Source of the DNA: Escherichia coli
GTDB taxonomy: Bacteria; Pseudomonadota; Gammaproteobacteria; Enterobacterales; Enterobacteriaceae
Direction: 5' to 3' (one strand)
DNA length: 64,000 nucleotides
Assembly: GCF_045037415.1 (NCBI RefSeq)
Contig: NZ_CP173438.1
Shown: positions 2,790-59,733 of the stretch, piece after piece
Position numbering within the stretch: position 1 is the stretch's first letter
Layout of the letters: each line of letters begins with the position of its first letter
Notes under the pieces: model-generated
The model's database searches: none
Seen by the model: the letters and a program-made list of their open reading frames with translations, nothing else
What the model was told of the DNA's origin: nothing
Position numbers and translations under genes: made by a program

Positions 2790-4248
2790 ATTGTTGGTAA
2801 ACGTAACGCCTTCGGAAACTCGAGTGGCGTATATTGATGGCGGTATTCTGCAGGAAATTCATATTGAACGTGAGGCGCGACGCGGAATAGTAGGCAATAT
2901 CTACAAGGGTCGTGTAAGTCGTGTACTTCCGGGTATGCAGGCGGCTTTTGTAGATATTGGGCTGGATAAAGCCGCGTTTCTTCATGCATCTGACATCATG
3001 CCGCACACCGAATGTGTGGCGGGTGAAGAACAAAAGCAATTCACGGTGCGCGACATCTCGGAACTGGTCCGTCAGGGGCAAGATCTGATGGTGCAGGTGG
3101 TGAAAGATCCGCTTGGCACTAAGGGTGCGCGCCTGACCACCGATATCACGCTGCCTTCTCGCTATCTGGTGTTTATGCCAGGGGCTTCTCACGTTGGGGT
3201 ATCCCAACGAATTGAAAGCGAATCAGAACGTGAACGCCTGAAAAAAGTGGTCGCAGAGTATTGCGACGAGCAGGGCGGGTTTATCATCCGTACTGCAGCG
3301 GAAGGGGTTGGCGAGGCCGAACTGGCCTCCGATGCTGCTTATCTGAAACGCGTCTGGACCAAAGTTATGGAGCGTAAAAAACGCCCGCAGACCCGTTATC
3401 AGCTGTACGGCGAACTGGCGCTGGCGCAGCGTGTTCTGCGTGATTTCGCCGACGCCGAACTCGACCGCATTCGCGTTGACTCACGCCTGACTTACGAAGC
3501 ATTGCTGGAGTTTACCTCAGAGTACATTCCCGAGATGACCAGCAAGCTGGAGCATTACACCGGACGCCAGCCGATTTTCGATCTCTTTGATGTCGAAAAC
3601 GAAATCCAGCGAGCGCTGGAACGCAAAGTAGAACTGAAATCCGGTGGTTATCTGATTATCGACCAGACCGAAGCGATGACCACCGTGGACATCAATACCG
3701 GGGCGTTTGTCGGTCATCGCAATCTGGACGACACCATTTTCAATACCAATATTGAAGCGACGCAGGCTATCGCTCGCCAGTTACGGTTGCGCAATCTGGG
3801 CGGGATTATCATTATTGATTTCATCGATATGAATAATGAAGATCACCGTCGCCGCGTGCTGCACTCGCTGGAGCAGGCGTTGAGCAAAGATCGGGTGAAA
3901 ACCAGCGTTAATGGTTTTTCGGCGCTGGGGCTGGTGGAGATGACGCGTAAACGCACCCGCGAAAGCATTGAGCACGTACTGTGTAACGAATGCCCAACCT
4001 GCCACGGTCGCGGAACGGTGAAAACCGTGGAAACGGTATGCTATGAAATCATGCGCGAGATTGTTCGTGTCCACCATGCTTACGACTCCGACCGTTTCCT
4101 GGTCTATGCTTCTCCGGCAGTAGCCGAAGCCTTGAAAGGCGAAGAGTCACACTCGCTGGCGGAAGTGGAAATTTTCGTTGGCAAACAGGTTAAAGTACAA
4201 ATTGAACCGCTCTATAACCAGGAGCAGTTTGACGTCGTAATGATGTAA
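2779..4248 (+). CDS. rng: Ribonuclease G
   Basis: ORF-track frame 2761..4248; start chosen at ATG 2779 ([13 protein letters not shown]...), giving 489 aa; RNase E/G catalytic-domain family; overlaps yhdE by 11 bp. Confidence 0.93.
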
Positions 4249-15645: not shown

Positions 15646-15942
15646 CAGTCAGCCCTGAAGAAGGCTGAAATAATGTTATGAAAGAGCGGGATTTTATCAA
15701 ATTTCGTTATTGAGAAACATGCCTGCGTCACGGCCTGCAAATTCTGCTTAAAAGTAAATTAATTGTTATCAAATTGATATTGTTTTGGCTGAGCGGTAGG
15801 GTATATTGTCACCACCTGTTGGAATGTTGCGCTAATGCATAAGTGACTGTTAATTACGTAAGTTAGGTTCCTGATTACGGCAATTAAATGCATAAACGCT
15901 AAACTTGCGTGACTACACATTCTTGAGATGTGGTCATTGTAA

Positions 15943-24013: not shown

Positions 24014-24038
24014 AAACAGGCCCATGTGGCCTGTTTTG
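24014..24038 (+). terminator. Rho-independent terminator after sspB
   Basis: acaggcc-catgt-ggcctgt followed by tttt, 6 bp after the sspB stop. Confidence 0.75.
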
Positions 24039-24115
24039 CTATCTGTCATCTTTTCGCCTGACTTTGATACTGTGCTACGATAGCGTCGTTATTATCCGCT
24101 AACGCATTTTCCTGA

Positions 24116-29591: not shown

Positions 29592-29617
29592 AATTTAGTT
29601 GGATAGCTCGTTTTATA

Positions 29618-29644
29618 AATTCGCCAGACACTGTCTGGCGAATT
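29618..29644. other. Perfect inverted repeat (12-bp arms, 3-nt loop) at the yhcH/gltD convergent junction; possible bidirectional terminator hairpin
   Basis: aattcgccagac-act-gtctggcgaatt; contains GAATTC; no strong U-tract on either side. Confidence 0.5.
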
Positions 29645-37249: not shown

Positions 37250-39586
37250 ATGAAGCAAATTCGTCTGCTGGCGCAGTATTATGTTGACCTGATGATGAAG
37301 TTAGGTCTGGTGCGCTTCTCAATGTTGCTGGCGCTGGCCCTCGTCGTTCTTGCCATTGTGGTACAAATGGCGGTAACCATGGTGCTGCATGGTCAGGTCG
37401 AAAGCATTGATGTTATTCGTTCTATCTTCTTTGGTTTGCTGATTACGCCGTGGGCGGTCTACTTTCTATCGGTGGTCGTCGAGCAACTGGAGGAGTCACG
37501 ACAACGTCTGTCACGACTGGTGCAAAAACTGGAGGAGATGCGCGAGCGCGATTTGAGCCTCAACGTTCAGTTAAAAGATAATATTGCCCAGCTAAATCAG
37601 GAAATCGCCGTTCGTGAAAAAGCGGAAGCAGAACTGCAGGAAACCTTCGGCCAACTGAAAATTGAAATCAAAGAGCGCGAAGAGACACAAATTCAGCTCG
37701 AGCAGCAATCCTCATTCTTACGTTCCTTCCTTGACGCTTCACCCGACCTGGTTTTTTATCGTAACGAAGATAAAGAGTTTTCCGGCTGTAACCGCGCGAT
37801 GGAGCTGCTGACCGGAAAAAGCGAAAAACAACTGGTTCACCTGAAACCTGCTGATGTTTACTCACCAGAAGCCGCTGCGAAAGTCATTGAAACCGATGAA
37901 AAAGTGTTCCGTCATAATGTGTCACTGACCTATGAGCAGTGGCTGGATTATCCCGACGGACGCAAAGCCTGCTTTGAAATCCGTAAAGTGCCGTACTACG
38001 ACCGCGTGGGTAAACGTCACGGTTTGATGGGCTTTGGTCGCGACATTACCGAGCGTAAGCGGTATCAGGATGCGCTTGAACGCGCCAGCCGCGACAAAAC
38101 GACGTTTATCTCCACCATCAGTCACGAATTGCGTACACCGCTGAACGGTATCGTCGGCCTGAGCCGCATTCTGCTGGATACTGAACTCACCGCCGAGCAG
38201 GAAAAATATCTCAAAACCATCCATGTTTCGGCTGTCACGCTGGGGAATATCTTCAACGATATTATCGACATGGATAAGATGGAACGGCGCAAGGTCCAGC
38301 TTGATAATCAGCCGGTTGATTTCACCAGCTTCCTTGCCGATCTGGAAAATCTCTCCGCATTGCAGGCGCAACAAAAAGGATTGCGCTTTAATCTGGAGCC
38401 GACGCTGCCATTACCGCATCAGGTCATTACCGACGGGACGCGTTTACGGCAGATCTTGTGGAACCTCATCAGTAACGCCGTCAAATTCACTCAGCAAGGC
38501 CAGGTTACCGTGCGCGTGCGCTACGATGAAGGCGATATGCTGCATTTTGAAGTGGAAGACTCTGGTATCGGCATTCCGCAGGATGAGCTGGATAAAATCT
38601 TCGCCATGTATTACCAGGTGAAAGACAGTCATGGCGGTAAACCTGCCACCGGCACCGGTATTGGTCTGGCCGTTTCTCGTCGTCTGGCGAAAAATATGGG
38701 CGGCGATATTACGGTTACCAGCGAACAGGGCAAAGGTTCAACCTTTACGTTGACGATCCACGCACCGTCGGTAGCAGAAGAGGTTGATGATGCGTTTGAT
38801 GAAGACGATATGCCTTTACCGGCGCTGAATGTGCTGCTGGTGGAAGACATTGAACTGAACGTGATTGTCGCGCGTTCTGTGCTGGAAAAATTAGGTAACA
38901 GCGTTGATGTCGCCATGACCGGCAAGGCGGCGCTGGAGATGTTTAAACCGGGCGAATACGACCTGGTATTGCTGGATATTCAGTTGCCAGATATGACCGG
39001 GCTGGATATCTCTCGTGAACTGACGAAGCGTTATCCGCGCGAGGATTTACCGCCGCTGGTGGCCTTAACCGCTAACGTGCTGAAAGACAAGCAAGAGTAC
39101 CTCAATGCTGGAATGGATGATGTGCTGAGTAAGCCGCTTTCTGTTCCGGCGCTAACCGCGATGATCAAGAAATTCTGGGATACCCAGGATGATGAGGAGA
39201 GTACGGTGACGACAGAAGAGAACAGTAAATCAGAAGCATTGCTCGATATTCCCATGCTGGAACAGTATCTCGAACTTGTAGGACCGAAGCTGATCACCGA
39301 CGGGTTAGCGGTGTTTGAGAGAATGATGCCGGGCTATGTCAGCGTGCTGGAGTCGAATCTGACGGCGCAGGATAAAAAAGGCATTGTTGAGGAAGGGCAT
39401 AAAATTAAAGGTGCGGCGGGGTCAGTGGGGTTACGCCATCTGCAACAGCTGGGTCAGCAAATTCAGTCTCCTGACCTTCCCGCCTGGGAAGATAACGTCG
39501 GTGAATGGATTGAAGAGATGAAAGAAGAGTGGCGTCACGACGTAGAAGTACTGAAAGCGTGGGTGGCAAAAGCCACTAAAAAATGA
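37250..39586 (+). CDS. arcB: Aerobic respiration control sensor kinase ArcB
   Basis: 778-aa ORF with HisKA H-box (ISTISHELRTPLNGI), receiver and HPt domains. Confidence 0.95.
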   Translation: MKQIRLLAQYYVDLMMKLGLVRFSMLLALALVVLAIVVQMAVTMVLHGQVESIDVIRSIFFGLLITPWAVYFLSVVVEQLEESRQRLSRLVQKLEEMRERDLSLNVQLKDNIAQLNQEIAVREKAEAELQETFGQLKIEIKEREETQIQLEQQSSFLRSFLDASPDLVFYRNEDKEFSGCNRAMELLTGKSEKQLVHLKPADVYSPEAAAKVIETDEKVFRHNVSLTYEQWLDYPDGRKACFEIRKVPYYDRVGKRHGLMGFGRDITERKRYQDALERASRDKTTFISTISHELRTPLNGIVGLSRILLDTELTAEQEKYLKTIHVSAVTLGNIFNDIIDMDKMERRKVQLDNQPVDFTSFLADLENLSALQAQQKGLRFNLEPTLPLPHQVITDGTRLRQILWNLISNAVKFTQQGQVTVRVRYDEGDMLHFEVEDSGIGIPQDELDKIFAMYYQVKDSHGGKPATGTGIGLAVSRRLAKNMGGDITVTSEQGKGSTFTLTIHAPSVAEEVDDAFDEDDMPLPALNVLLVEDIELNVIVARSVLEKLGNSVDVAMTGKAALEMFKPGEYDLVLLDIQLPDMTGLDISRELTKRYPREDLPPLVALTANVLKDKQEYLNAGMDDVLSKPLSVPALTAMIKKFWDTQDDEESTVTTEENSKSEALLDIPMLEQYLELVGPKLITDGLAVFERMMPGYVSVLESNLTAQDKKGIVEEGHKIKGAAGSVGLRHLQQLGQQIQSPDLPAWEDNVGEWIEEMKEEWRHDVEVLKAWVAKATKK

Positions 39587-39698
39587 CCCCGGCTAGACCG
39601 GGGTGCGCGAATACTGCGCCAACACCAGGGAAATCTTGGCTGCGCCGTAAATTATTATGATGAGTTACAAGGGCACAGCACTGTTTTTCAGGCCGCAC
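39578..39698 (-). ncRNA. arcZ: Hfq-dependent small RNA ArcZ (SraH/RyhA)
   Basis: Minus-strand sequence GUGCGGCCUGAAAAACAGUGCUGUGCCC...CCCUGGUGUUGGCGCAGUAUUCGCGCACCCCGGUCUAGCCGGGGUCAUUUUUU; terminator hairpin ccccggctagaccgggg overlaps the arcB stop codon; convergent with arcB. Confidence 0.75.
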
Positions 39699-39815
39699 GC
39701 AGTTAAGATAGCAAAACTTAAATGATTTGTTACATGAATCAGTTAAATGTGTGATGCGTAGCATTTTTATTAAAAAAATTAATGTGTTTCAGTCAATTGC
39801 GAAAGGAAGATCACA

Positions 39816-40469
39816 ATGAAGAAAATTGGCGTAATTCTGAGCGGATGCGGCGTCTATGACGGTTCTGAAATTCATGAAGCGGTATTGACGTTGTTAGCTA
39901 TTTCACGCAGCGGTGCGCAGGCGGTTTGCTTTGCACCGGATAAGCAGCAGGTTGATGTTATCAACCATTTAACTGGTGAAGCGATGACGGAAACGCGCAA
40001 TGTGCTGATTGAAGCGGCACGAATAACGCGCGGTGAAATCCGTCCTCTGGCCCAGGCCGATGCCGCTGAACTGGATGCGTTGATTGTGCCGGGGGGTTTT
40101 GGCGCGGCGAAGAATTTAAGCAATTTTGCCAGTCTTGGTAGCGAATGCACCGTTGACCGTGAATTAAAGGCGCTGGCACAAGCGATGCATCAGGCCGGAA
40201 AACCGCTTGGTTTTATGTGTATTGCACCGGCGATACTGCCGAAAATTTTCGATTTCCCGCTACGTTTGACCATCGGTACTGATATCGATACCGCAGAAGT
40301 GCTGGAAGAGATGGGCGCGGAGCATGTGCCGTGTCCTGTCGATGATATCGTGGTTGATGAAGACAATAAGATTGTCACCACCCCGGCATATATGCTGGCG
40401 CAGAACATTGCAGAAGCGGCGAGCGGCATTGATAAGCTGGTTTCCCGCGTGCTGGTTCTGGCTGAATGA
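39816..40469 (+). CDS. elbB: DJ-1/PfpI-family glyoxalase ElbB
   Basis: 217-aa [26 protein letters not shown]... Confidence 0.9.
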
Positions 40470-59697: not shown

Positions 59698-59702
59698 TCA
59701 GC

Positions 59703-59733
59703 AAAACCCCGGCCATGTGCCGGGGTTTCTCTT
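59703..59733. terminator. Bidirectional terminator between convergent obgE and dacB
   Basis: aaaa-ccccggc-catgt-gccgggg-ttt. Confidence 0.7.

Follow-up and report, generated by a model that had tools for sequence, protein, structure and literature searches.

The arcZ locus convergent with arcB in an Escherichia coli genome and the direction of its terminator

The arcZ gene and its neighbors

We analyzed a 64,000-nucleotide stretch of Escherichia coli DNA (hereafter, the window) at the junction of arcB and elbB. According to the open reading frame list, arcB occupies positions 37250 to 39586 of the plus strand, and its translation is a protein of 778 amino acids that ends in WVAKATKK and is followed by TGA. 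Strain SK1144 and K-12 both have identical DNA that is annotated as arcB. On the minus strand, the 121-nt primary transcript of arcZ spans 39578..39698, with its 5′ end at a G (39698) and its 3′ end in a U-run (39578/39579), as placed by Rfam family RF00081, identity with K-12, and Term-seq. The gene elbB lies on the plus strand at 39816..40469, divergent from arcZ, and the 117-bp spacer between the two (39699-39815) contains the promoter regions of both genes.

An intact ArcZ gene on the minus strand of the arcB-elbB spacer had been proposed in the first-pass annotation, together with an Rfam scan for ArcZ as a check. A covariance model search with RF00081 (ArcZ) returned a match at 39591-39698 of the minus strand with a score of 120.8 bits, well above the gathering score of 66 (E = 4.1e-27), and the alignment covers the model at full length (positions 1-106 of 106). 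In addition, window positions 39578-39698 (minus strand) are identical at 121 of 121 nt to the K-12 MG1655 ncRNA gene arcZ (b4450, 3350577-3350697). Both results bear the proposal out. When 271 nt around arcZ were compared with K-12, two positions differed, both in the arcZ-elbB spacer: one at 39761 (position -63 of arcZ) and one at 39808, in the ribosome-binding region of elbB. arcZ was found in 5,416 of 5,426 complete E. coli genomes, with at least 99% identity in 5,395. Every sequence element of a functional ArcZ is intact in the window, namely the extended -10, stem-loop 1, the RNase E site, the core CCCUGGUGUUGGCGCA, and the terminator with its U-run. The locus at 39578-39698 (minus strand) is thus almost certainly the canonical E. 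coli sRNA gene arcZ (SraH/RyhA). Judged by sequence, the gene and the arrangement of its neighborhood are the same as in the K-12 reference, and the functional properties ascribed to arcZ here are carried over from K-12 and Salmonella through sequence identity.

The convergence of arcZ (39698-39578, minus strand) with arcB (37250-39586, plus strand), which the first-pass annotation had described as covering the arcB stop codon, is evident from the coordinates of the two genes. They overlap by 9 bp (39578..39586), which on the arcB strand are the final two Lys codons and the stop, and the K-12 annotation contains the identical 9-nt overlap (3350689-3350697, corresponding to window positions 39578-39586).

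We then compared the locus across Enterobacterales. Only 8 of 19 diverse loci reached the Rfam gathering score, which means that relying on Rfam alone underestimates ArcZ outside Enterobacteriaceae, Yersinia, and Pantoea. Therefore, loci were collected by an exact 21-mer containing the core CCCUGGUGUUGGCGCA, which gave at least 120 hits in Enterobacterales genomes, and the orientation of arcB was scored by alignment of the ArcB C-terminus. arcB is convergent with arcZ in all 116 scorable loci. In 92 of these, about 80% of the sample, the arcB stop codon (TGA in 58, TAA in 34) directly adjoins the hairpin, resulting in an overlap of 9-11 nt. These 9 bp are probably under a double constraint, encoding the C-terminal Lys-Lys-stop of ArcB and the U-run of ArcZ, an arrangement kept in most Enterobacterales.

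Sequence elements of arcZ

A strict sigma-70 promoter scan of 39300-40000 returned nothing at the thresholds used because the -35 of arcZ is poor. We therefore identified the extended -10 element visually, with the annotated +1 as the reference, and examined its conservation. The element TGcTATCTT lies at 39705..39713 of the minus strand, with TG at -15/-14 and TATCTT at -12..-7, and 15 distinct Enterobacteriaceae promoter sequences all have TTTGCTATCTTA unchanged. This element is the likely arcZ promoter. Upstream of it, the block ATTTAACTGATTCATGTAACAAATCATTTAAG (-50..-19; 39717..39748, minus strand) is nearly invariant in Escherichia, Citrobacter, Enterobacter, Lelliottia, and Leclercia loci, making it a candidate regulator-binding region.

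The ArcA/ArcB-ArcZ feedback with which the first-pass annotation had connected this layout is established in the literature (Mandin and Gottesman 2010, as summarized in PMC11331407), but it cannot be read from the sequence. A search with the ArcA 15-mer box GTTAATTAAATGTTA, allowing up to three mismatches, found no match near arcZ; the sole match, at 15754, is at chance level. A ChIP study does not report an ArcA site upstream of arcZ (PMC3798270), while a review states that ArcA-P binds the arcZ promoter region (PMC11331407). Direct binding of ArcA at the arcZ promoter is uncertain.

The structure line of the Rfam alignment places stem-loop 1 at nt 20-60 of the transcript (39639..39679, minus strand), where the arms GCUGUGCC and GGCGCAGC pair; it belongs to the part that is lost on processing. 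The arms vary among genera yet stay complementary. The single-sequence minimum free energy fold of the 121-nt RNA (z = -2.7) has a long-range structure unlike the Rfam consensus and was therefore not relied on.

Directly 5′ of the core CCCUGGUGUUGGCGCA is an RNase E motif, GA|UUU (consensus RN|WUU; 39631..39635, minus strand), with the predicted cut between nt 65 and 66. A site directly before the core has been described for E. coli ArcZ (PMC11331407). Cleavage at GA|UUU would leave exactly 56 nt (nt 66-121; 39578..39633, minus strand), which equals the published length of processed ArcZ (PMC11331407), and this fragment is the predicted active form. The core itself, an exact match at nt 69-84 (39615..39630, minus strand), serves in target pairing and directs the single cleavage (PMC11331407). 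The identical K-12 ArcZ is transcribed, bound by Hfq, and processed by RNase E in vivo, and it regulates rpoS and other targets (PMC11331407). We also modeled pairing of the processed ArcZ seed with the 567-nt K-12 rpoS leader using RNAduplex. The best duplex had an energy of -24.4 kcal/mol and lay away from the known site. Shuffled seeds averaged -26.9 kcal/mol, and 251 of 300 scored equal to or better than the real seed, so this comparison does not discriminate.

At the 3′ end, a terminator scan of 39300-40000 found one site only, on the minus strand, with its stem at 39604..39586 and the tail CATTTTTTAG. The hairpin, ACCCCGGU-CUA-GCCGGGGU (39586..39604), has eight pairs, six of which are G-C, and folds with an energy of -14.0 kcal/mol. 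Across species, 38 distinct variants of the hairpin all fold, with compensatory changes from GG/CC to AA/UU. The tail CAUUUUUU (39578..39585, minus strand), which contains the 3′ U-run, is complementary to the arcB bases AAA AAA and the TG of the stop codon. The U-run binds Hfq (PMC11331407), and K-12 Term-seq places the ArcZ 3′ end within it, at 3350696 (+), corresponding to window position 39579, in three conditions. The first-pass annotation had described both the hairpin and the U-run as overlapping the last arcB codons. This is correct for the tail, CA plus U6 at 39578-39585, but the stem shares just its closing A-U pair at 39586. The G+C core of the hairpin (39587-39603) starts right after the arcB TGA (39584-39586).

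We also considered whether the region encodes a small protein, either as a 62-amino-acid ORF at 39576-39764 (minus strand) or as a 40-codon frame beginning with the GUG at the ArcZ +1. The former is present in the ORF list, and in E. coli and E. albertii the latter runs without a stop until a UAG at the extreme 3′ end. However, the 62-amino-acid ORF has its ATG before the point where transcription starts, the stop codon falls at or beyond the transcript end, in-frame stops occur in Citrobacter and other close relatives (five loci), and the 5′ half changes freely, with indels, yet keeps its stem pairing. We rejected coding by either frame on account of the relatives' in-frame stops and the ATG before the transcription start, and consider a small protein from this region a negligible prospect.

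Termination of arcB transcription

The first-pass annotation had further proposed that arcB and arcZ share a bidirectional terminator. This proposal finds no support: the plus strand has no U-tract and no predicted terminator, Term-seq has no arcB 3′ end, and the arcB 3′ UTR is described as running into arcZ (PMC4281340, PMC11331407). In a canonical bidirectional terminator, a G+C-rich hairpin lies between an A-run and a T-run, so that the RNA of either strand has a U-tract after its stem. Here, the minus strand has U6, whereas the plus-strand RNA continues after the hairpin as UGCGCGAAUA, with two U in 10 nt; the longer arcB-strand sequence 3′ of the hairpin, UGCGCGAAUACUG, likewise has no U-tract. 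K-12 Term-seq maps only one of the two transcripts to the hairpin: the ArcZ 3′ end is listed, and an arcB 3′ end nearby is absent from the published lists, although low arcB abundance may explain its absence. The supplements of a SMRT-Cappable-seq study do not mention arcB, arcZ, or elbB, and a literature search for arcZ with a bidirectional terminator found nothing relevant. Collectively, these observations suggest that the arcZ hairpin terminates transcription in one direction only, for arcZ. Since no U-tract follows the hairpin on the arcB strand, arcB transcripts probably pause there or read antisense through arcZ.

Three accounts of the arcB 3′ end can be weighed against one another. That the hairpin at 39586-39604 is nevertheless a canonical bidirectional intrinsic terminator ending both transcripts is improbable. 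The hairpin is palindromic and folds no less well as plus-strand RNA, it lies directly 3′ of the arcB stop, and an A-run precedes it on that strand, as in many two-way terminators. Against this reading, the stem is followed on the plus strand by UGCGCGAAUA, and the scan of 39300-40000 has no plus-strand site. The downstream sequence, which is the complement of ArcZ stem-loop 2, moreover hardly varies among the 120 species loci (TTCGCGCA in nearly all, TTAGCGCA in a few) and so cannot supply a U-tract. The lack of an arcB 3′ end in the Term-seq lists and the reported pairing of the arcB 3′ UTR with ArcZ (PMC4281340) also argue against it. We give an about even chance to transcription of arcB crossing the hairpin and arcZ, possibly into elbB-mtgA, which would produce a long antisense RNA whose duplex with ArcZ is degraded, resulting in mutual repression. 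No plus-strand terminator was predicted from arcB to position 40000, and three reports are in line with this account: arcB mRNA is thought to be an antisense RNA that destabilizes ArcZ (review, PMC11331407), ArcZ is said to destabilize "antisense arcB mRNA" (PMC3937726), and ArcZ binds the arcB 3′ UTR including 6 nt of coding sequence (PMC4281340). On the other hand, Rho-dependent or collision termination could shorten the arcB 3′ UTR.

Collision is the basis of the remaining account, a non-canonical "overlapping" bidirectional terminator at which the arcB polymerase pauses and a head-on collision ends both transcripts, so that arcB output depends on the arcZ promoter. E. coli convergent pairs often end at Rho-independent hairpins unlike intrinsic terminators (Ju et al. 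2019, as cited in bioRxiv 10.1101/2022.10.23.513370), a stable hairpin sits exactly within the arcB/arcZ overlap, and reports that arcB and ArcZ repress each other (PMC11331407) would fit. The literature examined does not, however, mention such termination for the arcB/arcZ pair, Term-seq has no arcB 3′ end, and arcB expression is weak next to that of ArcZ; we regard this account as unlikely. More speculative still is an extended version, in which the ArcZ hairpin sets the 3′ end of arcB mRNA through pausing and head-on collision, the activity of the arcZ promoter tunes ArcB co-transcriptionally, and the Lys-Lys terminus is a by-product of the U-run. If true, co-transcriptional tuning of ArcB would add to the known post-transcriptional feedback.

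Proposed regulation and comparison with known systems

From the elements above and established knowledge of the ArcZ family, the arcZ unit would be transcribed from the extended -10 promoter, with the divergent elbB 117 bp away, to the Rho-independent terminator. Hfq would bind the 3′ part of ArcZ, and RNase E would cut once at GA|UUU to release the 56-nt 3′ fragment. The invariant seed at the 5′ end of this fragment would then pair with targets, activating rpoS and repressing flhDC, sdaC, tpx, and mutS. In the reported feedback loop (PMC11331407, PMC3937726, PMC4281340), ArcA-P and arcB expression lower ArcZ, and ArcZ lowers arcB mRNA. ArcZ pairs with an arcB 3′ UTR that extends into arcZ (PMC4281340, PMC11331407); the reported cis-antisense effects would probably act on arcB transcripts that pause at the hairpin or read antisense through arcZ.

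The strain has an intact copy of a well-characterized global regulator, one that connects ArcAB oxygen sensing to the RpoS stress response, motility, and mutagenesis, and for these functions little changes. What is corrected is the annotation: the arcZ terminator should be treated, in annotation and modeling, as one-directional. Modeling of ArcB-ArcZ, or deletion of arcZ, should also take into account the 9 bp that are common to the arcB reading frame. Published work mutates the arcZ -10 element instead, sparing the arcB frame (PMC3937726).

Compared with K-12 arcZ (b4450), the locus is alike in its neighbors (arcB convergent, elbB divergent), the 9-nt overlap, the -10, the RNase E site, the seed, and the terminator; there are no differences inside the gene, and the two substitutions are confined to the arcZ-elbB spacer. 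Among other sRNAs, DsrA and RprA are, like ArcZ, stand-alone Hfq-dependent genes with Rho-independent terminators and U-runs, and they activate rpoS by pairing with its leader. They have no sequence relationship to ArcZ. Unlike DsrA and RprA, ArcZ needs RNase E processing for activity (PMC11331407) and is physically interlocked with the gene of the sensor kinase that regulates it. The overlapping bidirectional terminators described by SEnd-seq, such as ynaJ-uspE, also have a stable hairpin in a convergent overlap that is a poor intrinsic terminator in at least one direction; unlike that class, the arcZ direction here has a strong canonical terminator with U6. Finally, GadY-gadX resembles ArcZ-arcB in that an sRNA encoded against an mRNA 3′ end influences how stable that mRNA is. 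In contrast to GadY, ArcZ works chiefly in trans, using a seed outside the overlap region, and its fixed overlap with the coding sequence is just 9 nt.

Identity and anatomy of arcZ in the window

The first-pass annotation placed an ArcZ sRNA at 39578-39698 on the minus strand and proposed a search with the Rfam ArcZ covariance model as a check. We read this interval on both strands and scanned the whole window against Rfam. RF00081 (ArcZ) matched at 39591-39698 (minus strand) with 120.8 bits, above its gathering score of 66 (E = 4.1e-27), and the match spanned model positions 1-106 of 106; it is 13 nt shorter than the annotated interval because the model ends inside the terminator. The full interval corresponds exactly to the curated arcZ gene of K-12 MG1655 (b4450, 3350577-3350697, 121 nt) and is identical to it at 121/121 positions. 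Together, these results bear out the sRNA call. The gene lies between arcB (37250-39586, plus strand; 778 aa, ending in WVAKATKK) and elbB (39816-40469, plus strand), with mtgA and yrbL as further flanking ORFs. Only two families reached their gathering scores in the window, ArcZ and the greA leader (GraL, RF01769; 61202-61323, plus strand, 128.2 bits, gathering score 60, full model).

Among 5426 complete E. coli genomes, 5416 carry the 121-nt sequence, 5395 of them with at least 99% identity; arcZ belongs to the core genome of the species and is nearly invariant. The ncRNA is annotated only in the curated K-12 record. In RefSeq, PGAP records of E. coli (loci L001 and L002 among them) show only arcB (and elbB) at the matching position and have no arcZ feature; therefore, automated annotation would leave arcZ invisible.

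Numbered from the 5' end on the minus strand (nt 1 = 39698), the RNA contains stem-loop 1 of the Rfam consensus at nt 20-60, with arms GCUGUGCC and GGCGCAGC. A predicted RNase E site, GA/UUU (nt 64-68; cut at the slash), fits the RN/WUU motif, and the core CCCUGGUGUUGGCGCA (nt 69-84) follows directly 3' of it, as described for E. coli ArcZ, in which RNase E cleaves immediately upstream of this core (PMC11331407). Computed from the sequence, a cut after nt 65 yields exactly 56 nt (39633-39578), the same length as the active form described in PMC11331407. The terminator, ACCCCGGU-CUA-GCCGGGGU (nt 95-113, 39604-39586), has 8 base pairs, including 6 G-C pairs, and a fold energy of -14.0 kcal/mol; the tail CAUUUUUU follows it. 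Term-seq in K-12 places the ArcZ 3' end at 3350696 (+), equivalent to 39579, in 3/3 growth conditions (PMC7815308, supplementary file 1). In duplex-energy calculations of ArcZ with rpoS, shuffled seeds could not be told apart from the real one, a result that counts neither for nor against pairing. We rejected a coding role for a mechanically called 62-aa ORF, whose ATG falls outside the transcript, and for the frame opening at the +1 GUG, in which Citrobacter and other near relatives have stop codons.

Promoter and upstream region

A predicted extended -10 promoter element, TGcTATCTT (39705-39713, minus strand), places TG at -15/-14 and TATCTT at -12 to -7 relative to the annotated +1 G at 39698. 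A strict sigma-70 scan reported no site here because the extended -10 lacks a good -35. Among 15 distinct Enterobacteriaceae sequences, the -10 element and the block from -50 to -19 (ATTTAACTGATTCATGTAACAAATCATTTAAG; 39717-39748, minus strand) hardly vary, the block across genera of the family. This conserved block stands out as the candidate binding region for a regulator acting on arcZ. The first-pass annotation also invoked ArcA/ArcB-ArcZ feedback. This is established in K-12 (PMC11331407), but the sequence does not demonstrate it: the ArcA 15-mer consensus, allowing up to 3 mismatches, had no match near arcZ, the -50 to -19 block included, and genome-wide ArcA ChIP identified no binding site upstream of arcZ (PMC3798270).

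Across 271 nt around arcZ, the window differs from K-12 at two positions only: 39761 (-63 of arcZ; C on the ArcZ strand, G in K-12) and 39808, in the elbB ribosome-binding region (GGAAGAT versus GGATGAT, plus strand). Elsewhere, gltD adjoins nanQ at approximately 29600-29619, where K-12 MG1655 has ~8.3 kb containing gltF, the yhcA-yhcD-yhcE(IS5)-yhcF fimbrial cluster, and yhcG; of the 5426 complete E. coli genomes, 946 share this junction, which is therefore a lineage polymorphism. Similarly, nanR adjoins sspB (24038-24114; the same junction occurs in 1039 of the 5426 genomes), where K-12 has dcuD (~1.7 kb), and dacB-obgE (59700-59707) has ~150 bp fewer than K-12.

Conservation of the arcZ-arcB arrangement

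At least 120 loci in species-representative genomes matched the 21-mer TTCCCTGGTGTTGGCGCAGTA. Genera among the matches listed include Escherichia, Citrobacter, Enterobacter, Kluyvera, Kosakonia, Yersinia, Rahnella, Pantoea, Erwinia, Photorhabdus, Xenorhabdus, Proteus, Morganella, and Providencia, a sample biased towards genomes with the exact 21-mer core. Enough downstream sequence for scoring was available at 116 listed loci, the window included, and a homologue of the ArcB C-terminus was convergent to the sRNA in all 116 (minimum local alignment score, 182). The arcB stop abuts the terminator stem in 92 of these listed loci (TGA in 58, TAA in 34), in which ArcB ends in Lys-Lys and the two genes overlap by 9-11 nt. 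The 24 other loci come mainly from Pantoea, Mixta, and Morganella, with a few from elsewhere; there, arcB stops within the U-run or a few nucleotides past it. The stem occurs in 38 distinct variants among the listed loci. All of them fold, with compensatory changes such as CCCCGG/CCGGGG to CCCCAAC/GUUGGGG, which is good evidence of selection on the stem itself.

Of 19 diverse loci searched with RF00081, only 8 scored at or above its gathering threshold. Those below it (L003, L004, L021, L022, L024, L031, L041, L050, L061, L062, and L073) come from Photorhabdus, Xenorhabdus, Proteus, Morganella, Providencia, Erwinia, Yersinia aldovae, Mixta, and Rouxiella. In these loci all 21 nt of the ArcZ core are unchanged and a terminator adjoins arcB; the scores are low because the 5' half of ArcZ has diverged. 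Incidentally, the Providencia vermicola locus (L061) carries a class A RNase P RNA (RF00010, 334.6 bits; 2961-3334, minus strand) ~7 kb from arcZ.

Termination between arcB and arcZ

As the first-pass annotation proposed, arcZ is convergent with arcB and overlaps its stop codon (TGA, 39584-39586, preceded by AAA AAA); the coordinates agree, and both the K-12 annotation and a review of ArcZ (PMC11331407) already note an overlap of 9-10 nt. On the ArcZ strand the nine overlapping bases read U-CA-UUUUUU, comprising the U of the closing A-U pair (the last stem base), a CA spacer, and the U-run. The claim that both hairpin and U-run overlap the last arcB codons thus holds for the U-run but only marginally for the hairpin, by one stem base, because the G+C core (39587-39603) lies wholly outside the arcB reading frame.

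The one part of the first-pass interpretation that goes beyond established knowledge is that arcB and arcZ share a bidirectional terminator, and here the evidence is against a canonical one. The hairpin folds on the plus strand too, but the sequence that follows it there, UGCGCGAAUACUG, is complementary to ArcZ stem-loop 2. Because stem-loop 2 shows essentially no variation among the species sampled, this sequence cannot supply a U-tract. A terminator scan of 39300-40000 found a single site, on the minus strand, and none on the plus strand. Curated K-12 Term-seq tables (PMC7815308) contain no minus-strand (arcB) 3' end near the locus. PMC11331407 and PMC3937726 present arcB mRNA as an antisense partner of ArcZ, and PMC4281340 describes ArcZ as binding the arcB 3' UTR, all citing Mandin & Gottesman 2010; by implication, arcB transcripts continue past the hairpin. 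Alternatively, the hairpin in the overlap could pause polymerases, with head-on collisions completing termination and coupling both genes co-transcriptionally, a model proposed for numerous pairs of convergent genes in E. coli (Ju et al. 2019, as described in bioRxiv 10.1101/2022.10.23.513370). Our literature search on arcB/arcZ returned nothing for or against collision-type termination, and we consider it improbable that arcB ends in this way; such coupling would be of modest interest if true.

On the ArcZ strand, K-12 has a Rho-dependent termination region antisense inside arcB (3351461 (+), approximately 38814 on the minus strand), 764 nt past the ArcZ 3' end, with a Rho score of 15.2 and downstream reads rising from 20 without bicyclomycin to 418 with it (PMC7815308). 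These values suggest that Rho suppresses ArcZ-strand read-through or antisense transcription.

The window locus has every sequence-level defining feature of ArcZ that can be tested (covariance score, synteny, core, RNase E motif, and terminator), and the tests for a canonical bidirectional intrinsic terminator came out negative for its hairpin. Therefore, the locus is an already known gene, correctly identified, with one over-reaching inference attached; its in vivo behaviour is documented for K-12, whose arcZ sequence is identical (PMC11331407).
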